64,000 nt of DNA. Source: Verrucomicrobiota bacterium (GTDB lineage: Bacteria > Verrucomicrobiota > Verrucomicrobiia > Limisphaerales > Palsa-1400). This document shows positions 13,907-29,024 of the stretch, piece by piece. Below the pieces are notes generated by a model. The model saw nothing but the letters and a program-made list of their open reading frames with translations, did no database searches and was not told the DNA's origin. The stretch's first letter is position 1, and each line of letters opens with the position of its first letter. The position numbers and the translations under genes are program-made. The stretch spans positions 166,429 through 230,428 of the forward strand of contig JBEKYR010000004.1 in the NCBI GenBank assembly GCA_049510745.1. The letters run 5' to 3'.

Positions 13907-14173
13907 TCGCTCGCCAGTGCGGTGACGTTTGGCGGGTGGTTTGGCGGCCGTATAGGCGCTTGCATGAATCGGCGGGTCATGGCCCAGAACATCGATAGAT
14001 TTGTTGCGCCTTTCCGAGAGCGCGACAACGGTTCCTGGGAAAGCGAATACTGGGGCAAATGGTTCACCTCCGCAGCCTTCGGTTATCTTTATCAGCCCTC
14101 GGCGGAACACAAGGCCAAGATTGACCAGGCCGTGCGCGCCCTGCTTCAGACCCAGAGCCCGGACGGACAGATC
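13907..14173 (+). pseudogene. Internal fragment of a GH127-like beta-L-arabinofuranosidase gene
   Basis: RRVMAQNIDRFVAPF...WESEYWGKWFTSA...IDQAVRALLQTQSPDG resembles the GH127 N-terminal region; truncated on both sides. Confidence 0.6.
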
Positions 14174-14840
14174 ACACCCGGTGATCCTCGCGGATGATTG
14201 TGCGGCAGCCGCCGGCCTGGCTGGAACGCCAGTTCTTGGGCGGTTTCGTCTTCTTGAGTTGGTCCAATTGACCGATTTCCTTGAGACGCAGGTAGATGAG
14301 TTGCCAGGCACAAGGGCGGGCCGGGTCCACTTCGCAGTGGTCTTCACGGGAGCCGCTGCACGGGCCATTGAGCATGCGTTTGGCACAGCGGGTGACCGGG
14401 CAAATGCCGCCGTAGAGGTGGAGCACACAGGCGCCACACGCGCCACATTTTTCCGCCCAGACTCCGCGTTCCTCGAGGATGCCGATGAATGCGGTGTCCA
14501 AGCCGGCATAGACCGGTTTGCCGCTGTAACGCTCGGCCAGGGCCTGCACGCCGGCGCCGCAACCCAGGGACAAGACGGCGTCGTGGTTCTTGATGGCCTC
14601 GGCCGCTTGCTCGAGGAAGACGTTGTCGCACTGGCGTTCGATGGTGGCTTCATCGACTTCGAGGGGGAGGCCTTTGAGTTTTGCCGCCATGCGCAACGCG
14701 GAGGCGATGATGCTGACTTCGCGTTGTCCGCCGGCCAGGCAGACGGTGACGCAGGTGCCACAACCGAGCAAGAGCAGCTTTCGGTGTTTTTCCACTATGG
14801 CCAGCAGGTCAGGGATGTTCTTTCTTTGTGCAACGATCAT
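14172..14840 (-). CDS. metV: MetV-type small subunit of methylene-THF reductase (MTHFR C-terminal Cys-rich domain)
   Basis: MIVAQRK start overlapping the mvhD stop (ATGA); GCGTCVTVC, ERQC, CGACGAC, CPVTRCAKRMLNGPCSG, CEVD..PCAW. Confidence 0.88.
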   Translation of the reverse strand: MIVAQRKNIPDLLAIVEKHRKLLLLGCGTCVTVCLAGGQREVSIIASALRMAAKLKGLPLEVDEATIERQCDNVFLEQAAEAIKNHDAVLSLGCGAGVQALAERYSGKPVYAGLDTAFIGILEERGVWAEKCGACGACVLHLYGGICPVTRCAKRMLNGPCSGSREDHCEVDPARPCAWQLIYLRLKEIGQLDQLKKTKPPKNWRSSQAGGCRTIIREDHRV

Positions 14841-15283
14841 GAGCAGTTCTCCGGTTTGGGCGAACCATCGGGTTTGATGGGGTTCGGGCCCAGTTTGCGA
14901 ATGGTTTGGACCATGTCGGTAATCGTATCCGCCAGGGGCCGGGCCATGGCGGCGGAAATGTTGACCATGCGGATGCGGTCCTTTTCGAGGCCGATTTCCA
15001 GCAGCAGGTCCCGGGTATAATTGACCCGGCGTTTGGCGCAAAGATTACCTTCGACAAAATGGCAGCCGCCTTCCAGGCAGCCGGCGACCAGCACGCCGTC
15101 CGCGCCGTGTTCCAATGCCTTCATGAAATACTCCGTTTCCAGCCGGCCGGTGCAGGGAGTGCGGATGATGCGCACATTGGGCGGGTACTGGATGCGCATC
15201 GAGCCGGCCAGGTCAGCGGAGGAATAGGCGCAGTAGTGGCAGCAAAAGGCCACAATCTTGGGTTGAAAGGCTTCGGCTTGCAT
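14837..15283 (-). CDS. mvhD: MvhD/FlpD [2Fe-2S] adaptor subunit
   Basis: AFCCHYCAYSSADLAG, RTPCTGR, GADGVLVAGCLEGGCHFVEGN. Confidence 0.93.
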   Translation of the reverse strand: MQAEAFQPKIVAFCCHYCAYSSADLAGSMRIQYPPNVRIIRTPCTGRLETEYFMKALEHGADGVLVAGCLEGGCHFVEGNLCAKRRVNYTRDLLLEIGLEKDRIRMVNISAAMARPLADTITDMVQTIRKLGPNPIKPDGSPKPENCS

Positions 15284-15286
15284 GGC

Positions 15287-18200
15287 TCAGACGGTTTCCA
15301 CCAACTCCCTTTCCGGGTGGGCGGCAGTCAAAAGTTCGCCGTTCCGCTCCGGGAACAATTGCCGGATCATGACCAGGAACTGGTCGGTTTCAAAGTGATG
15401 CAGTTGGATGGCGCGGGCGGGACACTCGGCGGCGCAGATGCCGCAGCCCATGCACTTGGCGGCCTCGATCTGGCCCTTGCCGTCCTTGTTGCAGAACGGC
15501 GCGGAATACGGGCAGACGGTGACGCAGGTCATGCAGGAGATGCATTTCTGCTGGCTGACATAACAGACCTGGGCGCTGACGTCGAGTTGCGTTTTGGAAA
15601 GGACGGTGGCGGCGCGGGCGGCGGCGGCGCGCGCCTGGGAAATGTTCTCGTCGATGAACTTGGGCGAATGGGCCAGCCCGCAAAGGAAGACGCCTTCGGT
15701 GGCGAAATCCACCGGCCGCAGCTTCATGTGGGCTTCCACATAAAATCCGTCGGCGTTCAGCGGCACCTTGAGCATGTCGGAAATGCGCTTGTTGTTCTTC
15801 AGGTCGCTTTCAATGCCGGTGCTGAGGACAACATTGTCAGCTTCGACCTGGAGCGGTTCGGGGAAGTCGGGGCTTTTCAGGCTGACGACCAGGCCCTGAG
15901 TATCGCGCACCTCGGGCGGCGCTTCAGGCGTATAGCGGATAAAGACGACACCGGCCCGGCGGGCTTGCTGGTAGTAGAGTTCACGGAAGCCGTAAGTCCT
16001 GACGTCGCGGTAGAGGACGAAGACGTTGGCGGCGGGATCTTGTTTCTTGATGGCCAATGCATTCTTGATGGCCATCGAGCAGCAAATACGGCTGCAGAAA
16101 GGATGCTGCTCGTTGCGCGAGCCGACACACTGGATCATGACGATATTTTGTCCCTTCGCGGGATAGGCTTTGTCGTGCAACAGTTTTTCCAGCTCAACCT
16201 GCGTCAAGACGCCTGCGGAGCGGCCATACAAGAACTCGGAGGTCCTGGCTTGGCGCGCGCCGGTGGCGACGATGATGGCGCCACCGGACACTTCGAGTGG
16301 CTGGCCGCCCTTGACCAGCGACAGATGGAATTTGCCGACGTGGCCTTTGATGGCGGAGATTTCTGTTTCCAGATACAGCTTGATGTGGGGATGCTTCTCG
16401 ACTTGCCGGATAAGGGCGTTGGTAAACTGAGCGAGGTCCGCGTGCTCGAAGGTGCTGTGAATCTCGTGCAGGGTCCCTCCCAGACGATTCGTCTGTTCCA
16501 CCAGATGCACCGGAAATCCCTGATTCGCCAGCGCCAGGGCCGCGGTCATGCCACTCAAGCCGCCGCCGATGACCAAGCCCGTCTGGTCAACCTGCAGCGT
16601 CCCGCCTTCCAGCGGCGAGAGCATCCGCGCCCGGGCGATGGCCATGTTGACCAGTTCAACCGCCTTTTCCGTGGCGGATTGCGGCGCCGCGGAATGCACC
16701 CAGGAGCACTGGTCGCGGATGTTGGCCATCTCGAACAAATGGGGATTCAACCCCGCTTCGCGCAAGGTTTCACGGAACAAAGGCTCGTGCGTTCGCGGGG
16801 TGCAGGAGGCCACCACGATACGATTGAGCCGATGCTCGCGGATCGCATCCTTGATGTTCGACAAGCTCGTATCGGAACAGGTGAACATGGTATGAGTCGC
16901 CAACACGACGCCCGGCTGGTTCGCGACGCTTTTCGCGACTCGCTCGACATCTACGACGGAGCCGATGTTCATGCCGCAGTGGCAGACAAAGACCCCCACT
17001 CGCGCTGCTTCATCGGCGACATCATGCTCGGTGGGGTAACTCTTTTTGGTGATCAGCGTATTGCGCGCGGGCGCCAGCAATTCCATTGCCATGGACGCCG
17101 CGGCGCTGGCTTGGGTCACCGTTTCGGGAATGTCCTTGGGCTCCTGGAAGGCGCCGCCGACGAAGACGCCCGGCCGGGAGGTCGATAAGGGGGCCAGGCG
17201 GTCGGTGTGGCAGAAGCCAAAGTCGTTCAGCTTGATGTCGAGGCTGGCCGCGCACTTGGCCATGGACTTCGGCGGTTCCATGCCGACGGACAGAACGATC
17301 AGGTCAAAATCCTGCTGTTGAAGCTGGCTGTTGCCATCCAGAAATTGAACGCGCAGGTCTTTGCTGCCGGGGACCTGAACAATCCGCGAGGGAATGCTTT
17401 TGACGTAGTGGATGTTTTTCTGCGCCCTGGCGCGCTCATAGTACTGGTCAAAATCCTTGCCGTAGGCGCGGATATCCATGTAGAAGATGGTCGCGTCCAG
17501 GCCTTCGACGTGATCGCCCGCCACCATGGCCTGTTTGGTCGCCATCATGCAGCAGATGGACGAGCAATAGTCATTGCCACAAGCCGAATCCCGCGAACCG
17601 ACGCATTGGATCCAGGCGATGCGCTGGGCTTTGCGGCCATCGGACAGCCGGATGACATGCCCTTCAAACGGCCCCGCGGCCGAGAGCATGCGCTCGAATT
17701 GAACACTGGTAACGACGTTGGGATGGCGGCCATAACCGAATTCGCCTTTTCGTTTGGCATCGAATTCACCAAAGCCCGGGGTCAGGATGACAGCGCCCAC
17801 CTCGAGCGTAACGGTCCGCTCCTTCATCGCGTGGTCGATGGCGTGCTGTTGGCAAGTCTCGACGCACCGATTGCACTCCGAGCACAGGGCGCAGTTAAGA
17901 CAACGCTCCGCCTCCGCCAACGCTTGCTCCTCGGTCAGCCCTTTTTCGACTTCGTCGAAATTCCCCAGCCGATTGGCTGGCGGCAGTTCGGCGGCGTGGG
18001 GCCGGTCCTTCTTCGCGACTTTCCCGGCATCGGGCAGCAGCTCCTCCGGCATGGGGTTGACCGTGCTCTCAAAACGGGCAGCCAGCAGGTCCTTGCCGGT
18101 CAAATAGCGTTCGATGGATTCGGCGACCCGTTTGCCGGCCGCGACCGCATCGATCACCGACGCGGGACCCGAGGCATTGTCGCCGCCGGCGAAAACGCCG

Positions 18201-19783
18201 GGGATGGAGGTTTGCCCGGTGACGGGGTCGGCTTTGAAGCAGCCTCTTTCGCTATCAACCGGGATATGCCCGAGCAACTGCTCATCCACCATCTGGCCGA
18301 TGGCCACAATGATTTGGTCGGCTTCCAGAGTGGCCAGGTCGTTTTCGTCAAAGGCGGGACTAAACCGTTTCCGATCGTCGAAGACCCGGAGGCACCGTTT
18401 GATCTCGAGGCCGGTCACGGAACCATTCCCCGTGATGCGCTTGGGGCCCCAGCCGTCGCGGATCGTAATGTTTTCGGCCAGCGTGGCCTCGATTTCTTCC
18501 TTGTAGGCGGGCATTTCATCGCGCCGTTCCAGGCAAACCATCTCGACCTTCCTGGCGCCGAGGCGCAGGGCGGTCCGGGCGACATCCACCGCCACATTGC
18601 CGCCGCCAATCACCAGGACCCGGTCTTTCACCACCGGCTTCCGGGCCGAAGCCGCGTCCCGGAGGAATTCGACACCATGAAACACGCCGTTGATTTGTTC
18701 GCCTTCGATGCGGAGCTTGCGGCTTTTCTGGGCGCCGGCGGAAAGGAATATGGCCTGATAATCCTGCCGGAGCGATTGGAAGGTGATGTTCTCGCCGATG
18801 CGGCAGTTATAGACGAACTTGACGCCCTTGCGGCGGATCAGTTCGACTTCATGGTCCAAAATGTCCTTCGGCAGCCGGTACTCAGGAATCCCCCAGCGGA
18901 GCATGCCGCCGGCGGCGCCGAGCGCTTCAAACACGGTGACGGCAAAACCGGCATCGGCAAGGTCAGCCGCCGCGGTCAATCCGGCCGGGCCGCCGCCAAT
19001 CACAGCGACCTTTTTGGCGTCCGGCGCGGGAGATTTTTCTTCCGGCAAAGCTAGTTTCCCCGCCGCCAGCATTTCGATTTCCTGGTCGGACGCGAACCGT
19101 TTCAACAACCGGATGGCGATGGGATCATCGGCCTTGCCGCGGGTGCAAACGGATTCGCAGGGATGGGTGCAAATCCGGCCGCAGATCGCGGAGAGGGGAT
19201 TTCGCTGGCGAACAAGGTTGACTGCCTTGAGGTATTCCTTCTTCTTGATGAGCTGAACGTAGCCTTGGACGTTGACCCTGGCCGGGCACTTCACCTTGCA
19301 GGGCGCGTGGCCGTGTTTGAGGATGCCAAAGATGTTGGGCGTGGCCTGAGCGTAGAGCTTGGCGATTCCCTTGCGCGTGCCGAGGCAGCGGTTGAACTCG
19401 TCCGGTATATCGACGGGGCACGCTTGGGTGCATTCGCTGCAGCCGGTGCATTTATCCTCGTCAACAAATCGCGGAAACCGCCGGACGGTGGCTTGAAAAT
19501 GCCCCGGATCACCCTTCAGGCCGGTCAATTCCGAGAGTGTCAGGATCTCGACGTTGAGATTCCGCGCGCATTCCACCAGTTTGGGCGAGACAATGCAGGT
19601 CGCGCAATCGCCCGTCGGGAAAGTCTTGTCCAGGTGGGCCATCATGCCGCCGATGGCGGCGTCGCGCTCGACGAGATAGACCTTGAAGCCGCTGTTGGCC
19701 AGGTCCAGCGAGGCCTGCACGCCGGCGATGCCGCCGCCCTGCACCAGCACCGCGCCAATCTTCTTGTCGTCGGATTTGCTCAT
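15287..19783 (-). CDS. hdrA: Giant HdrA-like flavoprotein (HdrL type): two HdrA modules, an inserted GltD-like NAD(P)H module and ferredoxin domains
   Basis: GGGIAG and LDKTFPTGDCATC; insert with APC..CP, ICGRICTHPCE, GGGPAG, GGGNVA; two IQCVGSR/CS.ICC motifs; VFVCHCG; CxxCxxCxxxCP ferredoxins. Confidence 0.92.
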   Translation of the reverse strand: MSKSDDKKIGAVLVQGGGIAGVQASLDLANSGFKVYLVERDAAIGGMMAHLDKTFPTGDCATCIVSPKLVECARNLNVEILTLSELTGLKGDPGHFQATVRRFPRFVDEDKCTGCSECTQACPVDIPDEFNRCLGTRKGIAKLYAQATPNIFGILKHGHAPCKVKCPARVNVQGYVQLIKKKEYLKAVNLVRQRNPLSAICGRICTHPCESVCTRGKADDPIAIRLLKRFASDQEIEMLAAGKLALPEEKSPAPDAKKVAVIGGGPAGLTAAADLADAGFAVTVFEALGAAGGMLRWGIPEYRLPKDILDHEVELIRRKGVKFVYNCRIGENITFQSLRQDYQAIFLSAGAQKSRKLRIEGEQINGVFHGVEFLRDAASARKPVVKDRVLVIGGGNVAVDVARTALRLGARKVEMVCLERRDEMPAYKEEIEATLAENITIRDGWGPKRITGNGSVTGLEIKRCLRVFDDRKRFSPAFDENDLATLEADQIIVAIGQMVDEQLLGHIPVDSERGCFKADPVTGQTSIPGVFAGGDNASGPASVIDAVAAGKRVAESIERYLTGKDLLAARFESTVNPMPEELLPDAGKVAKKDRPHAAELPPANRLGNFDEVEKGLTEEQALAEAERCLNCALCSECNRCVETCQQHAIDHAMKERTVTLEVGAVILTPGFGEFDAKRKGEFGYGRHPNVVTSVQFERMLSAAGPFEGHVIRLSDGRKAQRIAWIQCVGSRDSACGNDYCSSICCMMATKQAMVAGDHVEGLDATIFYMDIRAYGKDFDQYYERARAQKNIHYVKSIPSRIVQVPGSKDLRVQFLDGNSQLQQQDFDLIVLSVGMEPPKSMAKCAASLDIKLNDFGFCHTDRLAPLSTSRPGVFVGGAFQEPKDIPETVTQASAAASMAMELLAPARNTLITKKSYPTEHDVADEAARVGVFVCHCGMNIGSVVDVERVAKSVANQPGVVLATHTMFTCSDTSLSNIKDAIREHRLNRIVVASCTPRTHEPLFRETLREAGLNPHLFEMANIRDQCSWVHSAAPQSATEKAVELVNMAIARARMLSPLEGGTLQVDQTGLVIGGGLSGMTAALALANQGFPVHLVEQTNRLGGTLHEIHSTFEHADLAQFTNALIRQVEKHPHIKLYLETEISAIKGHVGKFHLSLVKGGQPLEVSGGAIIVATGARQARTSEFLYGRSAGVLTQVELEKLLHDKAYPAKGQNIVMIQCVGSRNEQHPFCSRICCSMAIKNALAIKKQDPAANVFVLYRDVRTYGFRELYYQQARRAGVVFIRYTPEAPPEVRDTQGLVVSLKSPDFPEPLQVEADNVVLSTGIESDLKNNKRISDMLKVPLNADGFYVEAHMKLRPVDFATEGVFLCGLAHSPKFIDENISQARAAAARAATVLSKTQLDVSAQVCYVSQQKCISCMTCVTVCPYSAPFCNKDGKGQIEAAKCMGCGICAAECPARAIQLHHFETDQFLVMIRQLFPERNGELLTAAHPERELVETV

Positions 19784-19784
19784 A

Positions 19785-20654
19785 TCAGTTTGCCGCTGCC
19801 TTCTCCAAAACCGTTGAAGCGGGAACCATCAGCTTCTCGAACCCGAGCTCCTCGGGCGCCAGCCCCAGACCAAGCCCAACCAGTTGGGTGATGTACACGA
19901 TGGGCAAGTGATAGTTCTTACCGGTCTGTTTGTTGATATCCTGTTGGCGCAAATCCAGGTTGACCTGGCACATCGGGCAACTGACCGCGATGCAGTCGGC
20001 GCCCGCCTGGCAGGCCATGTCGAGAATCGAATCCGTGAGCTGGACCACCACATCCGTTCGTGAAAGCGACAACCCGCCGCCGCAACATTCGACCTTGCAC
20101 GGCCAGTCCAGGCTTTGGCCGCCCATCGCTTTTACCAGGCGGTCCAGCGAGGTCGGATTTTCCGGGTCGTCGAATTTCAAAATCCTGGGTGGCCGGACCA
20201 GCAGGCACCCGTAGTAACAAGCCACCTTGAGGTTCTTGAGCGGCTTCTTAATGGCGCGGGAGATGGCCTTCAGGCCCACGTCGTCCAGGAGCACTTCGAG
20301 GAAATGCCGCACGTGAACCGAGCCGTCGTAATCGCGCTCCAGCGCCTGGCTGACCTGCTCGCGCATGCCGCGATGGGCGGTGATTTCGTGGTTGGCCACT
20401 TTCATGCGGCTGAAGCAGGCGGCGCAACTGACTACCATGTCCAGTTTGAGGTCCTGGACTTTGGCCAGATTGGCAGCGGGGAGCGAGACAGCCAGGAAGG
20501 GATCGGTCTGGTGGCCGGCGGTCGCGCCACAACAGGTCCAGCCTTCGGGTTCAACCAGTTCAATGCCCAGCGCGCGCGCCACCGCCAAGGTGGATTGGTA
20601 CATGTCCCGGGCGGTGGATTCAGCCGAGCACCCTGGAAAATACGCGTACCTCAT
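19785..20654 (-). CDS. hdrB: Heterodisulfide reductase subunit B
   Basis: Two CCG domains: YFPGC, WTCCG, CAAC, YYGC, ECCG, CPMC. Confidence 0.93.
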   Translation of the reverse strand: MRYAYFPGCSAESTARDMYQSTLAVARALGIELVEPEGWTCCGATAGHQTDPFLAVSLPAANLAKVQDLKLDMVVSCAACFSRMKVANHEITAHRGMREQVSQALERDYDGSVHVRHFLEVLLDDVGLKAISRAIKKPLKNLKVACYYGCLLVRPPRILKFDDPENPTSLDRLVKAMGGQSLDWPCKVECCGGGLSLSRTDVVVQLTDSILDMACQAGADCIAVSCPMCQVNLDLRQQDINKQTGKNYHLPIVYITQLVGLGLGLAPEELGFEKLMVPASTVLEKAAAN

Positions 20655-21217
20655 GCTTGGGGTCCTTTATTCTGTCTGGAGCGCTTGAAGATGCGACCCA
20701 CGGTTTTCCGGTCGCCACCCCGGGAAGGCAGCAAAGAAATCTTCCGTTTCTTGAGCATGGCTGGAAACTTCTCCACATCGTTCCTCCATTTCCCCGTGCC
20801 CAGTTTGTAGGCGACGACCATCCCCATCTCATAGCTGCGGCCAAACATTTCGACCGTCTTCAGAAAAGCCCGGTTAAACAGCGGCACATTGCCGGCTGGC
20901 CTGGATGCGCCGCGTTGAAGGGCCAGCAGGCGCAAGGCGTCAATGACCGCGGCGACATCAATCCCCATCGGACAGCGCGCCGAACAGATCTCGCACGAGG
21001 CGCAGGTCCAGATGAGATCGCTCTCCAAGAGCTCATTGCCGGCGCCCAGATGCAGTTGGCGCATCAGTTCCGACGGCCGCGACTTGGTCAGCTTGGCCAC
21101 CGAACAACCACTGGAGCATTTCTTGCACTGGAAGCAGACGCTCAGATCGACGCCGCAGATTTGTTCCACCGCGTCTTTCAAGCCGGATCCGGTTTTCTTT
21201 TTGATGATGGTCATCAC
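20651..21217 (-). CDS. hdrC: Heterodisulfide reductase subunit C
   Basis: CFQCKKCSSGC and WTCASCEICSARCP; overlaps the hdrB start. Confidence 0.92.
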   Translation of the reverse strand: MMTIIKKKTGSGLKDAVEQICGVDLSVCFQCKKCSSGCSVAKLTKSRPSELMRQLHLGAGNELLESDLIWTCASCEICSARCPMGIDVAAVIDALRLLALQRGASRPAGNVPLFNRAFLKTVEMFGRSYEMGMVVAYKLGTGKWRNDVEKFPAMLKKRKISLLPSRGGDRKTVGRIFKRSRQNKGPQA

Positions 21218-21231
21218 GGGAGGTTCTCCGG

Positions 21232-23862
21232 TTACTTGGCGGCCACCTCTTCGAGGCCCGCTTCGGCATCGTCGGTATTCTGCTCAACCAGGGCAGTCAC
21301 GCTGGCGGGAACGACCTTGCGATACACGGCGGCGGGTTCGCGCCTCCGTCCGTTTTCGGTCAAGAGGTGCTCGATGGTGATTCCGAACAGCCGCTGATTC
21401 TCCTCGAGCAGCGGCAGGATCAATTCCCAGTCGGCATTGGTCAATCGGGCAAACTTGCCGCCGTTTAACTGCTGCTCGACCAACGTTCGGTTCGGATCGC
21501 GGACGAAAATGGCGCCGCCGGAAGCCAGGGAGAATAGATTGCTGCCGGGATAAGGCTCCGGCAGCGGAACCAATTGGCCGTCGTCATCGAACTTGACGCC
21601 ATTCAAGATCACGAACCCGCCGCCGTTATGAGGGTCGCCCGCCATGAAAGACTCTGCCAGGTAATCCAGGCACGTGCCATTGATGATGACTTTGGGCCGG
21701 CCGACGGAGTTGATGAGCGGACGGCCGGCGGCGTTGCCGAGCACATAGACAGAGCCGCCTTTGGCGCCATACATAAAGGTTTGGCCCACGTCGCCGTGAA
21801 TGACCAGCTTGCCTTCCTTGATAATCTGGCCCAACTGGTCCTGCGCGTTTCCATGCACCGTAATCGTCAGCCCATCGATGCCGGAGGCCAAGTAGTCTCC
21901 ACTGCTGCCATACACATCGATGGTCACCTCCTCCGTATTAGGCCCCAGCCCGCACCCGAGAAATCGCTGGCCGATACAATTGAAGCTGATGAAGTGCCGC
22001 CACCCCATCATGTAGGCCTCCACGAGCAGGGCCGCGTCACAATGGTCGCCTTCCGGTGGAAAATGCGCGGTGTCGATCACCAGCGTGGTTTCGTTCTCCT
22101 GCGGTTTGCGCAGGTGCTGGCGGGACTCGAAATCGATGAGGCGAAATGCGCTCTTGCCGGCGTCTCTTGAGCCGATGTTGGGAAGATGGCTGAACAACTG
22201 GTTCCACTCGTTATGAATAATGTGGAGCAGATGGCTGCGCTTTTTGGCGCCGGTTGAGTAAATCCGGTCGTTGAGCAGGGTGAAAACCTCAATCGCAGTG
22301 GCGGTTTTGGACGGATCTTTCGCCTGCTGCGTGATCTGACGGCACGCCAGGCGAAACTCATCAAAGGTCCATTGCGGCAGACGCCCGCGCATCGTCTCAA
22401 AAATCTCCACGCTGTCGAGCTTGTCGAAGGACGCTGGCGCTCCCGGCGGCGGCAATTCCCGCGAAAAATCGCACGATTCCGTTCCTCTGGGCATGGGGAC
22501 CGGTTTGCCGAATTTGTCGGTGCATGTGATCCGCATCTTGCCGGCGGCATCCTTTTGCAAATTGAAAATAAAGGCCCCGCCATCGTTGTGACTGCCGCCG
22601 CGCGCGTTCCAGTACCGGTCCGCCACCGGGCAAATCCGTTCGTCGTCCTTCGACAAGCTTAACAGCGTGGCATCGATCGCTTGTTTTTCCGAACAAATCA
22701 GGCCCACCTGCACCTTGCCGTCGCAGAAAGCAAACACCTGCGGCCGAAGCATGGCGGTGTCGGTGATGCCCATCAACTGGAACTGCTTTTCCCGGGCGAG
22801 CGTGCGGGCGATGATGAAGAACCAGGGACCATCGGGCGACCCGTGCATATGCGTGGCCTGGATCGCCCGGTAGATCTTTCTTTTCTCCGGATCGAGACGG
22901 TCAAAGTCCAGTTCCGTCGTGGGCGCCAGCGCCTCGATGATATATTCCAGCGGATAGTGGTAGGTCCGGCTCAGCAAATCGAAGAGCAGGGCCGAGACTT
23001 CCGTGTCGGTGAGGAACTGGGGATAGATCTGACGCTGCTTGAGGTACTCGCTGACGGAATGGTAATTGGCAAAGTCGCCGTTATGCACCAGGGCCATGTC
23101 AATGGCCGCAAACGGATGGGCGCCGCCCGGGTGCCAGACACGGCCCTTGGTCGGGAAACGTTGGTGGGCAATCCATTCGTACGCGCACAGGTCCTCAATC
23201 TGGTAGTACTTGACGATCGCTTCGGCGAACCCGACGACCTTGAGGATCATGATGTCCCGCCCATGCGAGAGCACGAAGGCCCGTTTCTCCCCGAGCGACG
23301 CGTAGTATTTCTGATTCAGGCTGAAGCTGTTCTGGTTGACAAACTCGGCTTCCGCTTCCTCGCGGCCCAGCGCCTGCAGATGGTTGCGGGCGATGAACGC
23401 GTCCAACACCTTCGGTTTTGCGCGCACAAAATAGCGGCTGACCGCCGGTGGCATCACCTCCAGCCCCGGCACGGACTTCCAGTCTTGGAGCTGGTCGAGT
23501 TGGCCGGTCGCGGCGATGTCGAAGTGCGGGGTGATGAACTGCGCCTCGATTTCGGGCCGCACCTTGGGGTCGATGAACGCCAGGTGCAGCAGGTAATGGC
23601 TATCAAGGACTTCGCGGCTGACCCCAAGCTGCTCGGGGACCAACCCCACCGCGGCGATGCCGCCTCCCTTTCCATTGCCCCGGTTGTGCATCTGGCGGGA
23701 CGGTTCATAGATATGCTTGCCCGGCACAGGCTCGCTGCAACAGAAACCCACGACCCCGCAGCCCCCTTCCTCGGCTTCCTTCTTCAGGCTCGAGGCGTGG
23801 TTGAGAGACTGGGCCAGCCGTCTTCTGGAATCGGTCAGGCGCTTTATCAATTGACCGTTCAT
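21232..23862 (-). CDS. Class II glutamine amidotransferase + GXGXG domain protein (split glutamate synthase-like subunit)
   Basis: EGGCGVVG Ntn Cys, HNRGNGKGGG, AHQRFPT, HPF, HNGDFAN, TDTE, DGPW; C-terminal GXGXG beta-helix; ATGA overlap with the upstream gene. Confidence 0.85.
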   Translation of the reverse strand: MNGQLIKRLTDSRRRLAQSLNHASSLKKEAEEGGCGVVGFCCSEPVPGKHIYEPSRQMHNRGNGKGGGIAAVGLVPEQLGVSREVLDSHYLLHLAFIDPKVRPEIEAQFITPHFDIAATGQLDQLQDWKSVPGLEVMPPAVSRYFVRAKPKVLDAFIARNHLQALGREEAEAEFVNQNSFSLNQKYYASLGEKRAFVLSHGRDIMILKVVGFAEAIVKYYQIEDLCAYEWIAHQRFPTKGRVWHPGGAHPFAAIDMALVHNGDFANYHSVSEYLKQRQIYPQFLTDTEVSALLFDLLSRTYHYPLEYIIEALAPTTELDFDRLDPEKRKIYRAIQATHMHGSPDGPWFFIIARTLAREKQFQLMGITDTAMLRPQVFAFCDGKVQVGLICSEKQAIDATLLSLSKDDERICPVADRYWNARGGSHNDGGAFIFNLQKDAAGKMRITCTDKFGKPVPMPRGTESCDFSRELPPPGAPASFDKLDSVEIFETMRGRLPQWTFDEFRLACRQITQQAKDPSKTATAIEVFTLLNDRIYSTGAKKRSHLLHIIHNEWNQLFSHLPNIGSRDAGKSAFRLIDFESRQHLRKPQENETTLVIDTAHFPPEGDHCDAALLVEAYMMGWRHFISFNCIGQRFLGCGLGPNTEEVTIDVYGSSGDYLASGIDGLTITVHGNAQDQLGQIIKEGKLVIHGDVGQTFMYGAKGGSVYVLGNAAGRPLINSVGRPKVIINGTCLDYLAESFMAGDPHNGGGFVILNGVKFDDDGQLVPLPEPYPGSNLFSLASGGAIFVRDPNRTLVEQQLNGGKFARLTNADWELILPLLEENQRLFGITIEHLLTENGRRREPAAVYRKVVPASVTALVEQNTDDAEAGLEEVAAK

Positions 23863-25427
23863 GAGGTTTTCGCCGCGTCGTTGGTGTAATCCAGGTGCAT
23901 CATCAGGTCGGTGCGTCCGCGCAACTCGCTCACGCTGCGCAGGCCGAGGCGTTGCAGAATCGAGACGAGCACGTTGCGCCAGGCGCTGTAAAGGTTGACC
24001 AGCCGCTGCGTGCCCCAATCGATCTGCATCTTCTCGGAAAGCTCGGGGTCGGTCGTGGCAATGCCGCGCGGACAACCGCGTCCGCTCTCACATCGGCCGC
24101 ACCGCACACAACCCAGCGCCACCAATTCCGCCGTGCCGATGACCGCTCCATCGGCGCCCAGGGCGATGGCCTTGGCCACATCGTAGGCCGAGCGAATGCC
24201 GCCGCTGGCAATCAGGACCACCTTGTCCCGGACCCCTTCATCGGCCAGAAAACGGTGGACCTTGCCAATGGCGTATTCGATGGGCATGGCGATGTTCTTC
24301 TTGGCGATGTCCGGCGCCGCGCCGGTCCCGCCGTAGCCGCCGTCAATGTGGACGATGTGAGTGCCCGCGGAGTAACTGCCCACCGCGACCATATCCACGT
24401 CCGTCGGGGTGGAGACCTTCGTCGAGATCAAGGCGCGCCGGTTCACGTGCTTGACCCAGTCGATGTGCTTCATGTGGTCTTCGATGGAATAGACGCTGTG
24501 GAAGGGGAACGGGGAAAAGAGCGAGAAACCCACCACCGCCTCCCGCATCCGGGCCACACTGAGCGTCACCTTGTCGCCCAACAGGTGCCCGCCCAATCCT
24601 GGCTTGGCGCCCTGGGCGTACTTGAACTCCACAATCGGCACACGCTGGATGGTCTCTTCGCGCACGCCGAACAGGCCCGTCGCCACCTGCGTAATGACAT
24701 GGTCGTCATAGGGCCGCATCCGCTCCATGTAGCCGCCTTCGCCCGTGCAGGTGAAGGTATTGAACGCGACCGCCGCCCGCGCTTTGGACAACTGGGTGAC
24801 ATTGCTCACTGACCCGAAGGACATGCCGCCGCCATACCAAGGCACATCAATCGTGAGCTTGGGCCGGCCATCGTCGCGCTTATTGAGCAGGAGGCGGGTG
24901 TCGATTTGCTCCGGGCGCAGGGCTACAGGCGGTCGAGCGGGGAATTTGAAGCGGAGCCGGTCGAACCCTCCGCCGGAACGGCCGCACTCATAATCGTAGT
25001 CGTAGTCTGCCGGCGGCACGTCGCCGGTTTCCGCCATCCTCCAGGTCGCCAGGATCAGATCGCTCGACCAGCGACTATCGCCCAGGGCCTGGCACATCGG
25101 ATTCTCCCGCACCTGCAGCGCTCCCTGGGGGCAAAGCGACACGCAATAGCGCCCGGTCTTCTCACAGGCCGGTCCGATGCACAAGTGATGGAGCGGCTCG
25201 CCGAAGTATTTGTAGCCGGGGTTGCGCACGTGGACCTGGAAGGAACAAACCTCCGCGCACTTCCCGCAACGCCGGCAATCCTGGCTGCGATGGACAATGT
25301 ACTTGGCGATCTCATTGCGGTAGCGCGACGGCGCCGGGCGGGTCACTCGCTCGACTCGTTCCTGCGGTACGCGGGTCTTGAGCGTGTTCTCGGGCAGCAA
25401 GTCTTCAATGCTTCTTTCTGGTGCCAT
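23859..25427 (-). CDS. Glutamate synthase FMN-binding subunit with N-terminal ferredoxin
   Basis: GMSFGS, TGEGG, QVATGLFGV, KYAQGAKPGLGGHL, DGGYGGTGAAP, ASGGIRS, CVRCGRCESGRGCP. Confidence 0.9.
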   Translation of the reverse strand: MAPERSIEDLLPENTLKTRVPQERVERVTRPAPSRYRNEIAKYIVHRSQDCRRCGKCAEVCSFQVHVRNPGYKYFGEPLHHLCIGPACEKTGRYCVSLCPQGALQVRENPMCQALGDSRWSSDLILATWRMAETGDVPPADYDYDYECGRSGGGFDRLRFKFPARPPVALRPEQIDTRLLLNKRDDGRPKLTIDVPWYGGGMSFGSVSNVTQLSKARAAVAFNTFTCTGEGGYMERMRPYDDHVITQVATGLFGVREETIQRVPIVEFKYAQGAKPGLGGHLLGDKVTLSVARMREAVVGFSLFSPFPFHSVYSIEDHMKHIDWVKHVNRRALISTKVSTPTDVDMVAVGSYSAGTHIVHIDGGYGGTGAAPDIAKKNIAMPIEYAIGKVHRFLADEGVRDKVVLIASGGIRSAYDVAKAIALGADGAVIGTAELVALGCVRCGRCESGRGCPRGIATTDPELSEKMQIDWGTQRLVNLYSAWRNVLVSILQRLGLRSVSELRGRTDLMMHLDYTNDAAKTS

Positions 25428-26802
25428 AAAGCTTTCCGAACGTTTCCTCCTCAAGTTGCTCGAAGAACATGGCGCGGCCGACATCGCCGCGCAGCCGGCG
25501 CGCCTCGCGCATGCCCATGGCCCCCATCACCTCGATCAACTGGTCGTGCCAGGCGGCGATGAGATTCGTCATGCGGCCCACGGCGAAATCGCGATCGACG
25601 GTCTCGAGCTTGGCCGGACACGGCTGGCCCGGTTTGCAACTCTCGCACAGATGACATTCCAGCGCAATGAGCAACGGCAGATTAATGGTCACCAGGTCCG
25701 CGCCGCATATAATGGCTTTGGCCAGGTGTTCCGGCAGCCCGATGCCGCCCCCGGCGATGAGGGTGATCTCGTCCCGGATCCCTTTCTCGATGAGGGCGGT
25801 ATGGATCTGGCGGAGCATGTCCTTCACAAAGCGCGGCGATGGCGCGCCGATTTCGTTGCCGTTGGCGTCCGCCACGACATGAATCGCCTCGACCTCCGGC
25901 AACTCGGCCAGCTCGATGGCGCGTTCGAGGCCCGTAGCGGTCAACTCGACCCGGATCGCGGCGACGATCTGGGGGTGGATCTTCTTGATCGCCTTGATGC
26001 GTTCGATCACCGCGGGGCTGTCCGCGATCTCCACCAGCCGGGTCTTTCGCAGCACCTCGGCCGGCACCGGGGGACTGTCCGGACCCAGATAAAACGCGAT
26101 ATGACGCAGGTGCTGCTCGGTGGCCGGCTGGTGCCGGGCATCCAGGATCGCGATCAAGTCGGTCGCCGCGGCGGTCTGTTCGATCACGGCATCGAGCTGC
26201 GGCAAAGTATGCGCCGGCGAACTCAGATCGAGGATCAGCGGCATCGGGATCGACACCAGGGGAGGCAACTCGGTCGTGACGCGCCTGCCGTCCAGGGCCA
26301 GGAATGGAGGCTTGCGCCCGATATCAACGGCCGTGCTGATGTATTCCCGGCCATGAATCCCGTCGCGCGTCGGACGAACGATTTCGGACATGTCCGTCCA
26401 CATCGAGTCGAAACCCGGGCCGGAAAACGCTCCCCGGTAGCCTGCGCCCGAGACCGGGATCTTCGCGGTTTCGGCCTGGAGCCAGGTGGTTTTGATGAGG
26501 TCCGGTTTCCAGTAGCTGTTCCCGAGGCCTTCATAAACGGGATTGAGGGACAGGCACAGGAGGCCTTTGGTGCAATCCTGCACGCACGAGAAACAGCCCA
26601 TGCACTCGAAGAACAGCGCCTCGACCGCGCTCAGGTTGCGAATATACTCCGCCTCCTGCCGGTAGCGGTCATAGACGCAGGCCTTCTTGACGCAGTTATG
26701 GCACCGGGCGCAGTCCTCCCGCCAGTCCACCACGCCATGTTTGCCGATGCGCGGGCCTCGCGGCGGCACCGGCCGTGTCTTGATGTGATATTTTTCCGGC
26801 AT
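25405..26802 (-). CDS. Degenerate paralog of the glutamate synthase FMN subunit with Fe-S motifs
   Basis: CARCHNC and CMGCFSCVQDC; AETAKIPVSGAGY; IAGGGIG; CHLCESCKPGQPCP; lacks GMSFGS and QGAKPG. Confidence 0.8.
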   Translation of the reverse strand: MPEKYHIKTRPVPPRGPRIGKHGVVDWREDCARCHNCVKKACVYDRYRQEAEYIRNLSAVEALFFECMGCFSCVQDCTKGLLCLSLNPVYEGLGNSYWKPDLIKTTWLQAETAKIPVSGAGYRGAFSGPGFDSMWTDMSEIVRPTRDGIHGREYISTAVDIGRKPPFLALDGRRVTTELPPLVSIPMPLILDLSSPAHTLPQLDAVIEQTAAATDLIAILDARHQPATEQHLRHIAFYLGPDSPPVPAEVLRKTRLVEIADSPAVIERIKAIKKIHPQIVAAIRVELTATGLERAIELAELPEVEAIHVVADANGNEIGAPSPRFVKDMLRQIHTALIEKGIRDEITLIAGGGIGLPEHLAKAIICGADLVTINLPLLIALECHLCESCKPGQPCPAKLETVDRDFAVGRMTNLIAAWHDQLIEVMGAMGMREARRLRGDVGRAMFFEQLEEETFGKLYGTRKKH

Positions 26803-26814
26803 GCGTTCTTCCGG

Positions 26815-27717
26815 TCACGACAGCCCGGCGGCGGCAAGCAACTCCGGCACCACGGCTTCTTTGCCACCCGAGAGAATATGAATTCCGCGCACACCTTCCA
26901 TCGTCTTCAGTTTCTTGATGGTCTCCACACACATCGCCCGGCCGATCTTCCCGGCGCCGTTGCCGGCGGCGGGGAGCTTTTTCGTCACTTCGTCGGGCAC
27001 GTAAAAATCGGGATGGGTCTCGCGCAGCTTCTGGGCCTCCGCTGCGCTTTCCAGGGGGAACACGCCGGCCAGAATCGCGGCCTTCTTGGTGAACCCCGCC
27101 TGGCGAACGGCCTCCAGCCATTGGCTGAACGCGTCGAGGTCGAAGACCGCATGGGTTTGAATGAACCGGGCGCCCGCCTCGATTTTGCTGTAGAGCCTGA
27201 GCAGGTTGAGTTCGAGCGGCTTCAGGAAGGGGTTGGCCACCGCTCCCACCAGCATCGAGAACGGCCCGTCAATCTTCGTCCCGTCGGCCAGCAGGCCCTG
27301 CTCGCACATCCGGGTGGTTGTCTCGACAAACTGCGTGGAATCGATGTCGAAAACGTTGGTGGCTTCCGCACAGCCGATGAGCGTCTGGTGATAGCCGGAC
27401 AAACAAAGCACATTCTTGATCCCGAGGCTGGCGGCTCCCAGCAAATCCGACTGGAGGGCGATGCGGTTCCGGTCACGGGTGACCATTTGAAGGACCGGCT
27501 CGAGGCCCATTTTGAGCGCGACGACCGAGGCGGCCAGGGAGGACATCGCCACCCCGTGCTGGTTGTCGCCCATGTTGACCGCTGTGAGCTTGCCGCCCAA
27601 GGATTTCAAGGCCGCTTCCGTGGCGGATTGAGTCGCCGTGGTCCGCGGCGCGTGCTCGGCGGTGAGGATGAACTCTCCGTTGTCGATTTTTCCGGCGAGT
27701 TGGCTGTCCACTTTCAT
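26815..27717 (-). CDS. metF: MetF-like flavoprotein (methylene-THF reductase family) with a variant active site
   Basis: FILTAE, EPVLQMVTRDRNRIALQSDLLGA, SKIEAGARFIQT, GIHI. Confidence 0.85.
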   Translation of the reverse strand: MKVDSQLAGKIDNGEFILTAEHAPRTTATQSATEAALKSLGGKLTAVNMGDNQHGVAMSSLAASVVALKMGLEPVLQMVTRDRNRIALQSDLLGAASLGIKNVLCLSGYHQTLIGCAEATNVFDIDSTQFVETTTRMCEQGLLADGTKIDGPFSMLVGAVANPFLKPLELNLLRLYSKIEAGARFIQTHAVFDLDAFSQWLEAVRQAGFTKKAAILAGVFPLESAAEAQKLRETHPDFYVPDEVTKKLPAAGNGAGKIGRAMCVETIKKLKTMEGVRGIHILSGGKEAVVPELLAAAGLS

Positions 27718-28517
27718 GCCACCATGCGTTCCGGTGTGTTCATCGCACCGCCGGGGGTGAGATCCGGCGGCAGTCTTCTGACCTGTTCGATGAACTGCTT
27801 GATTTCGTTACAGGCCTGCTGGGCGCCTCCTGCCGCGCACTCAATGACGGCCATCCGTCCCGCCCCGAATCCGATTTCCTCGAGCAACGATTCGACTGCC
27901 TGGGCGCGCCTATGGGCGCGCAGGCTGCCCTCGAAGTGACGGCACTCCTTCGTCTTGCAAGCCACAATTACCACGCCGTCCATGCCCGTTTCCAGGGCTT
28001 TAACCAGGTAGGGCACATCCACCTTTCCAGAGCAGGGCAGACCGATGGTCTTGACCGTGTCTCCGCCCAGATCTCCCCAGGAACCGGCCACCCGGCCCGC
28101 GTCCAAATTGTTCGAGCAGTAAAAGACGCAAGTCTTTAGGCGGCGCTTGTCTCCCCTGGCGGAGAGGGCTGGGGAGAGCTGGCCGCCCGGTTCCACATTC
28201 GGATTCCGCAACCGGTTCACGCACCGCTGGAGGACCGACACATCCTGCCGACACGCGGCCAATTCCTCAGCGCCCATGAGCCCGTCTTTGGCCATTTGGC
28301 AATGCAGCGCCTCGACGAGGGCGATGACTTCGCGCAGCGCGGCTGATTCGTCATCCACAGCGGAGCAGGCCTCCTCTAAACCCCCGCAGGCCAAATCCAT
28401 TCTTATGATCTCGTCCCACACCGCATCCAAGGTTGCGTGCAAGGCGAAGAGCAAACGCGGACAACTCGCTTCGATAGCCCTCAAGTGCTCATCGACAGTC
28501 GGGTCAAGCTTGCTCAT
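27714..28517 (-). CDS. MvhD-like [2Fe-2S] domain protein with ~125-aa helical N-terminal extension
   Basis: FYC, LPCSGKVD, GMDGVVIVACKTKECRHFEGS; overlaps the metF start. Confidence 0.8.
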   Translation of the reverse strand: MSKLDPTVDEHLRAIEASCPRLLFALHATLDAVWDEIIRMDLACGGLEEACSAVDDESAALREVIALVEALHCQMAKDGLMGAEELAACRQDVSVLQRCVNRLRNPNVEPGGQLSPALSARGDKRRLKTCVFYCSNNLDAGRVAGSWGDLGGDTVKTIGLPCSGKVDVPYLVKALETGMDGVVIVACKTKECRHFEGSLRAHRRAQAVESLLEEIGFGAGRMAVIECAAGGAQQACNEIKQFIEQVRRLPPDLTPGGAMNTPERMVA

Positions 28518-28570
28518 AATGCGTTATCCGAGACTTCAACTCATGCGCAATGATTTACTGGCGCGCGGGC

Positions 28571-28599
28571 ATTCTGCGCGAGCAACGCCCACCCGTAAA
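28571..28599 (-). promoter_or_regulatory. Possible sigma70 promoter of the redox operon
   Basis: TTTACG-17 nt-CAGAAT on the minus strand, ~55 nt upstream of the first ATG. Confidence 0.3.
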
Positions 28600-28662
28600 G
28601 GAAAAACGTCCGAGCCCTGCAAACATGAAAGAACGCCCGGAAACATTGTTGGCCCTGCTCTT

Positions 28663-28702
28663 TATCAGTTGGTCGTGGGTTCAACTCCCCGCCGGGGCAC
28701 CA
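28663..28702 (+). mobile_element. Displaced tRNA 3' half (probably tRNA-Lys-like); attR-like island boundary
   Basis: TATCAGTTGGTCGTGGGTTCAACTCCCCGCCGGGGCACCA has a T-loop, acceptor 3' strand and CCA end, but no D-arm or 5' acceptor strand upstream. Confidence 0.7.
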
Positions 28703-28825
28703 TCTCATCAACCACTTGCGAAAGCTCCCGGTGTTACTGACCCGCCGAGTAGTATCAGATTCTGTTGAGGACGATATTCGGGGCGAAACGATGAAAGATT
28801 GACGCGAACTTCATGGAAAGATGAA

Positions 28826-28861
28826 TGTCGGTTTAGTTAACATTTGTCGGTTTAGTTAACA
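28826..28861. repeat. Perfect 17-bp direct repeat x2
   Basis: TGTCGGTTTAGTTAACA at 28826 and 28845. Confidence 0.9.
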
Positions 28862-29024
28862 CCTTTGGCGGGCTGGACTGGGGCGGATGGCGGCAAGGTT
28901 TGAATTGGATCATGTTTTATTTCAGCCACTTACATTGGTTCTGTCCAATTTCTGGTCACCTTGGCTCGAATCTAGCTGGAAGAAAGCAGCGATGCGCGAA
29001 ACAGATTGAGTCAACGAATTTGTT

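Follow-up and report, generated by a model that had tools for sequence, protein, structure and literature searches.

A MetF homologue with altered pterin-anchor residues in a glutamate synthase operon that carries heterodisulfide reductase genes

The window analysed here is a 64,000-nt stretch of a Verrucomicrobiota genome (assembly GCA_049510745.1, contig JBEKYR010000004.1, positions 166,429 to 230,428 of the forward strand). It contains a tightly packed minus-strand run of ten genes, in the order mvhD', metF*, gltB2', gltB2, gltB1+3, hdrC, hdrB, hdrL, mvhD and metV, with start and stop codons that overlap or nearly abut throughout (Table 1). The operon co-encodes the whole 6S/Hdr-type gene set, namely HdrA, HdrB, HdrC, MvhD, MetV and MetF, alongside three glutamate synthase genes. 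The metV gene lies ~12 kb downstream of metF*, and it is mvhD' that directly precedes metF*.

Table 1. Genes and codons of the operon, with positions numbered along the window
Feature	Position	Strand	Remarks
MvhD', divergent MvhD/FlpD domain, four invariant Cys	27714..28517	-	Stop overlaps metF* start (ATGA)
MetF* (300 aa), MetV-type MetF homologue	26815..27717	-	PF02219, profile alignment, AlphaFold model
Tyr109 codon TAT, E. coli Asp120 position	27391..27393	-	Codon reading and profile alignment
His189 codon CAT, E. coli Gln183 position	27151..27153	-	Codon reading and profile alignment
GltB2', degenerate glutamate synthase barrel	25405..26802	-	Conserved Cys sets: 2x[4Fe-4S]-type at the N terminus, a further Cys motif at the C terminus
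GltB2, FMN/2-oxoglutarate domain, motifs intact	23859..25484	-	Longest ORF; true start maybe slightly downstream
GltB1+GltB3 fusion	21232..23862	-	Class II glutamine amidotransferase (GGCG nucleophile motif) and GXGXG domain
HdrC	20651..21217	-	Domain matches
HdrB	19785..20654	-	Both CCG motifs
HdrL-type HdrA, 1498 aa	15287..19783	-	GltD-like NAD(P)H-binding insertion
MvhD, canonical type	14837..15283	-	Domain matches
MetV, 222 aa	14172..14840	-	PF12225 122 bits; Cys set conserved

Splitting of glutamate synthase into GltB1, GltB2 and GltB3 is the archaeal form. In the window, the glutamate synthase parts align to 1ea0 and 2vdc (E 2.6e-51), and the start ATG of gltB1+3 overlaps the gltB2 stop. 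Among relatives with the same gene order (type F, described below), the amidotransferase motifs GGCG, HQRxPT and HNGD are intact in all 51 GltB1/3 copies, and the GltB2 motifs QGAKPG and GGTGA in all 69 copies; the [3Fe-4S] Cys motif occurs in 66 of these 69, and all 41 HdrB copies have both CCG motifs. By their motifs, the operon's glutamate synthase parts look catalytic. GltB2' matches the GltB central domain weakly (7mfm 567-678, E 0.017), and is a probable pseudoenzyme, the second in the operon if MetF* is another. The Cys set of MetV is invariant in 21 aligned MetV sequences, with the window's copy reading NGPCSG at the NGPCGG-type motif; no other MetV match was found in the genome. At its N terminus, MvhD' is extended by ~120 aa (28155-28517, minus strand); this extension recurs, at 50-83% identity, in 15 of the 87 type F loci (one of them counted twice), has no Pfam match and gave only matches below 0.9 in an Atlas search. 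Upstream of mvhD', a stretch at 28600-28720 resembles a partial tRNA gene by eye and is a possible integration scar. Metatranscriptome contigs that are at least 88% alike (four runs from three studies) cover 29-30 of the 30 bins of 14000-29000, and two such pieces span the Tyr109 and His189 codons; coming from relatives, and with no silent stretch as a control, these contigs weakly suggest that the operon is expressed. The drop in their coverage upstream of 28529 may come from lower conservation.

MetF* scores 95.1 bits against PF02219 (cut-off 24), placing it in the MTHFR fold family, and its AlphaFold model (pLDDT 95.2) is an MTHFR barrel whose top structural matches are solved MTHFRs (1v93, Z 29.5, rmsd 3.0 A over 277 residues; E. 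coli 1b5t, Z 27.6). It nevertheless falls under the NCBIfam equivalog cut-offs (54 vs 294 bits for TIGR00676), and PDB sequence searches found no solved MetV-type MetF. In a profile alignment built from 116 homologues, LCLSG-Y of MetF* pairs with ALRG-D of the human and Thermus thermophilus MTHFRs, and FIQT-H with FIIT-Q/FAIT-Q of the same two proteins, a mapping based on the profile alignment and the common fold rather than on residue-level superposition. The initial annotation had matched the two residues by eye to E. coli Asp120 and Gln183, and had read the N-terminal Glu (TAE) and RDRNR as retained. The codons, the ORF translation (Glu21, R81-D-R-N-R85, and also His280) and the profile all agree with that assignment, and the profile places Tyr and His, not Asp and Gln, at the two sites. 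Two changes had been overlooked: Gly50 stands in the alignment at a conserved Thr site (Thermus Thr49), which we take to be Thr59 in E. coli numbering, and the helix carrying E. coli Lys222/Phe223 is also altered. Judged by its sequence, MetF* is thus an MTHFR fold family member that has the Glu and the triad His of a competent MTHFR but lacks the Asp, the Gln and the Thr.

The Asp and Gln correspond to E. coli Asp120 and Gln183 and are the bidentate pterin anchors (PMC9900621). E. coli Asp120Asn keeps 0.3% of kcat with a Km raised more than 40-fold, and Gln183Ala has a Km raised more than 250-fold (PMC11094777); these are mutants of an NADH-using enzyme that retain some activity, and analogous changes affect the flavin-free Mfr less (PMC11094777). 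Asp120 lies over the flavin N1-C2=O and matters for the folate, not the NADH, half-reaction, whereas Glu28Gln impairs both half-reactions (PMC3156243), so retention of Glu21 does not by itself imply folate chemistry. Since Tyr and His occupy both anchors and no compensating residue is common to type F, normal MTHFR activity is unlikely. The view of the initial annotation that this is not an ordinary methylene-THF reductase is borne out to this extent: the non-conservative changes at the anchors, at Thr59 and in the Lys222/Phe223 helix make an ordinary role very unlikely.

The changes are not private to this genome. Among the query and 119 of the best 120 of 7974 matches (72-94% identical; one identical match dropped), Tyr109 is found in 119 of 120 sequences and His189 in 118 of 120, and both synonymous codons are in use. 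Pairwise dN/dS of MetF* is 0.12-0.29 (seven loci), indicating purifying selection, and is near the values of neighbouring genes (GltB2' 0.08-0.14; HdrB 0.12-0.15; one GltB2 value of 0.60 was set aside as a paralogue mis-match on a cut contig). By comparison, MetF relatives outside the degenerate clade (n=169) conserve the Asp in 98% and the Gln in 92% of cases, and among 150 representatives obtained by 50% clustering, site 109 is Asp in 108, Tyr in 11 and Thr in 10, with Asp and Gln occurring together in 94. Decay or sequence error confined to the source genome, which has nothing in its favour apart from the changes themselves, is rejected given this inheritance, the purifying selection, the full-length frame and the confident fold; we give it practically no credence.

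For a comparison of gene order, we used GltB2' as a marker, which was found in 91 of 301 genomes of a Desulfobacterota-centred sample; 80 regions were taken, and loci from the best 80 of 571 metagenome matches and from MetF queries were added. We sorted the 195 loci by gene order, without regard to motifs. Forty-two are type A (mvhD'-metV-metF-gltB2') and 87 are type F (mvhD'-metF-gltB2'), the window's type. The others have mvhD' only (24 loci), mvhD'-metV only (7), nothing recognised upstream (16, partly cut contigs), MetF elsewhere in the locus (8, types D/E, of which one proved to be type A and another a permuted type F) or a cut upstream (11). Four loci (L129, L130, L273 and L297) have the circular permutation gltB1+3-hdrCBL-mvhD-metV-mvhD'-metF*-gltB2'-gltB2, in which metV adjoins mvhD'-metF*. 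The operon without Hdr, mvhD'-metV-metF(intact)-gltB2'-gltB2-gltB1+3, is widespread in Desulfobacterota (L026, L027-L031 and L178-L257; for example, L026:6042-16890) and often adjoins glnA, amtB and PII genes; some variants fuse gltB2' to gltB2, and others lack metF (7 loci) or both metV and metF (24 loci).

Folate-site residues divide sharply between the two main types. With one type A and two type F loci set aside for incomplete motifs and the remainder made non-redundant at 95% identity, Glu21, Thr50, Asp109, Gln189 and His280 are all kept in 38 of 38 type A loci, whereas Asp and Gln occur together in none of 77 type F loci (Thr in 0, Asp in 3, Gln in 39, Glu in 75 and His in 69); these counts are phylogenetically non-independent and do not represent independent trials, type A being nearly all Desulfobacterota and type F being one branch of the GltB2' tree, over-represented because the window's own genes served as queries. 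A comparison of 35 type A with 72 type F sequences gave 47 positions conserved in both, including RDRNR, G108, H110, D124, D126, P163 and K178, and 37 conserved in type A only. The sharpest type F losses are at residues 23, 50, 109, 189 and 227-237, which in the alignment match Thermus Phe20, Thr49, Asp109, Gln180 and the Arg219/Phe220 helix; PMC9900621 assigns all of these to the folate site. Among loci that carry Hdr or have at least 1.5 kb of room after gltB1+3, Hdr genes are present in one of the 32 of type A and in 41 of the 42 of type F. The type A exception, L190 (4598-14143), has an intact MetF with metV beside it; hdrC and hdrB come after its gltB operon, where the contig ends, and this locus may be an intermediate state. 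The type F exception, L009, encodes MetF* in a locus that lacks Hdr. Residue loss tracks the Hdr-carrying, gltB-linked gene order, in line with the remark of the initial annotation that the change in MetF alters how the operon should be read.

Type F itself is heterogeneous. Position 109 is Tyr in 57 of the 77 sequences, Thr in 7, Phe in 4, His in 3, Asp in 3 and Glu, Ala and Asn in one each, and is thus aromatic in 64; the catalytic Glu is lost in two, and deep branches also lack His280 or Glu21. Sister operons with the same order have the 109/189 pairs Y/Q, F/Q, H/Q, T/Q, T/H, D/R, D/H, A/D and N/Q. It had been asked whether GYH/QTH defines a clade restricted to this operon type. All 40 loci with Tyr and His do directly precede gltB2' (38 full type F and 2 cut upstream; selection was partly by gltB2', and four loci are counted twice). 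As a signature of the operon type, GYH/QTH was rejected: it marks a subclade only, and operons of the same order vary at both sites.

The residue pattern bears directly on whether MetF* could still be a working methylene-THF reductase, with a remodelled pocket in which His110, His189 and Tyr109 replace Asp and Gln, or with lower affinity, in an operon that couples one-carbon metabolism to nitrogen assimilation through a Moorella-like complex. The retention of Glu21 and His280, together with the aromatic preference at 109, is a positive constraint that makes retained chemistry possible, although the aromatic preference and the invariant Glu and His could instead reflect a cap over a retained flavin. 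His110 is kept in 56 of 56 aligned sequences, the operon shares MetV, MvhD and HdrABC with the Moorella enzyme, and single mutants of the E. coli enzyme keep residual activity (PMC11094777). We nonetheless regard a working reductase as unlikely: the 77 type F sequences have 25 different combinations at the five sites, with no compensating residue in common, the folate-contacting segments all change together, the genome encodes a canonical MetF elsewhere, and few carrier genomes have acetyl-CoA synthase (below).

The initial annotation had offered another substrate or a flavin relay as possible roles. Within type F, the aromatic-109 subclade is well supported (100/96), and the catalytic Glu and His are invariant there, as might be expected of a flavoenzyme that holds a new small molecule, such as a non-folate imine, a quinone-like carrier or another pterin, against Tyr109 and His189. 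Operons of the same order in other branches, however, have unrelated residues at these sites and lose His280 or Glu21, His189 arose more than once beside Gln-bearing sisters, and no gene making or using another substrate was found travelling with the operon in the loci read. A different pterin carrier is disfavoured because the methanopterin enzyme Mer keeps Asp96 and Gln178 at the equivalent positions (PMC11094777). We consider a single new substrate quite unlikely given such varied replacements; of the two suggested roles, a specific new substrate loses ground, and loss of folate chemistry, with MetF* serving as a relay or scaffold, is favoured.

MetF trees place the degenerate copies all on one side, with weak to moderate support (FastTree 0.79; SH-aLRT 43; 85/94 on a 56-row subsample, with long branches). 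In the MetV tree, type F MetV falls among the intact gltB-linked ones and D/E-type MetV falls elsewhere, and types F, D and E lie apart in the GltB2' tree. The MetV and GltB2' trees point to a separate assembly of types F, D and E. Either a degenerate MetF travelled with an Hdr module or the loss recurred. In types D/E (L198, L202, L203, L211, L235 and L240), MetF lacks the Thr and partly also the Asp, Gln or Glu, a possible case of repeated MetF degeneration; two of the seven D/E loci that carry Hdr keep both Asp and Gln, though not Thr. A second group of degenerate MetF paralogues is not linked to gltB (L133:11660-12553, L135:12026-12895, L118:595-1464, L124:1550-2494 and L126:2439-3311). 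It has Thr at the Gln183 site, and its Asp is either retained or replaced by Tyr, Glu or Gly; some members lie in tandem with an intact metF, and others follow a small response-regulator-like or DNA-binding gene beside hdr genes.

The source genome (5.6 Mb, 94% complete) has a second PF02219 gene on another contig, encoding a canonical E. coli-type MetF with ALRGD and LTQ, and all six other carriers that were searched likewise have an additional PF02219 gene; both observations support a folate-inactive MetF*. A standard GltB/GltD-like pair is also encoded elsewhere in the genome, as is a second hdrC-hdrB-hdrA-mvhD set without metV (G000:C33:50121-53947). The nearest named relatives are Verrucomicrobiota MAGs, and distribution of the gene within the window's order is patchy (4 of 250 other sampled genomes). 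No match to acetyl-CoA synthase beta (PF03598), our marker for the Wood-Ljungdahl pathway, was found in the source genome, an uncertain absence at 94% completeness. Among genomes of the MetF-bearing types, this marker was found in 36 of 41 for type A, 6 of 23 for type F and 6 of 8 for D/E; this co-occurrence is confounded by phylum, since all three type F carriers from the Desulfobacterota sample have the gene.

We propose that MetF* is probably a folate-inactive MetF, kept as the flavin or scaffold partner of MetV and forming a non-catalytic subunit of an anaerobic glutamate synthase fed by NAD(P)H through Hdr. In characterised MetVF, MetF binds flavin and MetV carries Fe-S clusters (PMC8515935); a flavin is probably retained in MetF* as well. 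The Moorella enzyme binds NADH at HdrA (PMC8515935), HdrL combines an HdrA with a GltD-like part that binds NADH (PMC2702500), and MvhD, MetV and HdrA of Sporomusa pull down MetF (PMC9430772). The partners of MetF* are those of MetF in an Hdr-type MetVF module, but its chemistry is probably different. NAD(P)H would be oxidised at the GltD-like domain of HdrL, and electrons would pass from the HdrA-type flavin of HdrL to MvhD, the Fe-S clusters of MetV, MvhD', GltB2' and finally the FMN of GltB2, where they would reduce the iminoglutarate formed from 2-oxoglutarate and glutamine-derived ammonia; both the direction of flow and the order of the carriers are taken from gene order only. The pocket of MetF* would be capped by the aromatic residue at the Asp120 site, such that folate would neither drain nor feed electrons. 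MvhD' is the likely entry point to the synthase, since its four Cys are kept and mvhD' precedes the gltB genes in gene-order types A, B, C and F. Within this proposal, a scaffold or off-path flavin seems the better account of MetF*, with an on-path relay as the lesser but still substantial possibility. Loci in which the gltB module has no adjacent MetF (24 with mvhD' only and 7 with mvhD'-metV) argue that MetF catalysis is dispensable for the module, and the glnA, amtB and PII genes that adjoin the operon or its relatives in several loci fit a role in nitrogen assimilation.

The ten genes might instead not encode one electron-transfer complex at all, with MetF* playing a structural or regulatory part of its own and ferredoxin independently serving the glutamate synthase. 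The gltB modules with MvhD' alone, or with neither MetV nor MetF (16 of 195 loci, partly cut contigs), would fit such an arrangement, as would the finding that Sporomusa MetVF did not co-purify with Hdr-MvhD and that the interaction was seen in pulldowns only (PMC9430772). We think this improbable, however, given the overlapping or nearly abutting start and stop codons throughout the operon and the conserved gene order, including circular permutations that retain all ten genes (L129, L130 and L273).

A broader and more tentative idea, which we hold possible but somewhat less than even, is that these are modular glutamate synthases of anaerobes with a swapped electron input. Methyl-THF would be the donor in the Desulfobacterota form with intact MetF, as suggested by an intact MetVF in an operon without Hdr. 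In the window's form, the input would come from HdrL-HdrBC-MvhD via MetV, possibly with bifurcation, and MetF would have become a folate-blind pseudoenzyme, perhaps more than once, insulating the wire from the folate pool. The glutamate synthase couple lies at roughly -50 to -130 mV. The methylene-THF/methyl-THF couple lies at -200 mV (PMC9430772), so electron transfer from methyl-THF to the more positive glutamate synthase couple would run downhill. The frequency of acetyl-CoA synthase beta among type A genomes is consistent with a methyl-THF donor, with the same confounding by phylum, and it is possible that type A is supplied with Hdr in trans.

If a folate-inactive MetF* is the correct reading, it would be a conserved pseudoenzyme version of an enzyme in which the pterin-anchoring Asp has been called invariant (PMC9900621), and the Hdr-MvhD-MetVF set of a common anaerobe operon would power nitrogen assimilation, not methylene-THF reduction. 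Surveys that count metF, metV, mvhD and hdrABC as a sign of a bifurcating MTHFR or of one-carbon metabolism could then miscount such loci. The set of metF, metV and mvhD with hdrABC has been treated as a bifurcating 'Met' complex (PMC6085437), a rule that type F loci could satisfy on gene content. The natural pair of an intact MetF without Hdr and an apparently dead MetF with Hdr bears on the electron targets of Hdr-MvhD-MetV, and on whether methyl-THF oxidation (~-200 mV) is coupled to glutamate synthase as a favourable sink. Searches among the main texts of open-access articles turned up no paper that deals with this operon or with a degenerate MetF of the MetV type.

Several characterised systems resemble parts of the operon. 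HdrL of Desulfobacterium autotrophicum likewise joins HdrA to a GltD-like NADH-binding part and is followed by mvhD, while a link to genes for the glutamate synthase large chain or to a degenerate MetF is not described in the available sections of PMC2702500. The hexameric MetFV-HdrABC-MvhD MTHFR of Moorella thermoacetica and Sporomusa ovata (PMC8515935, PMC9430772 and PMC6085437) is likewise encoded by one operon with these six gene families, and it also has a large HdrA into which an NAD(P)H-binding part is inserted, the MetV Cys set and an RDRNR-type MetF. The window differs in that its MetF lacks equivalents of Asp120, Gln183 and Thr59, its metV is not directly upstream of metF, its operon adds a second, divergent MvhD and the three glutamate synthase genes, and acetyl-CoA synthase beta was not found in the source genome. 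MetF* shares the barrel of E. coli and Thermus thermophilus MetF (1b5t, 1zp4 and 1v93; Z 27-29.5), together with the catalytic Glu and the His of the Ser-His-Glu triad, but is only 16-22% identical to them, with both pterin anchors changed. Lastly, the operon has the amidotransferase nucleophile, FMN/2-oxoglutarate and [3Fe-4S] Cys motifs of GltB (1ea0, 2vdc and 1llw) intact; unlike GltB, however, its protein is split into GltB1+3, GltB2 and a degenerate, Fe-S-bearing GltB2', and in place of a GltD the operon has an Hdr/MvhD/MetV/MetF* module alongside.
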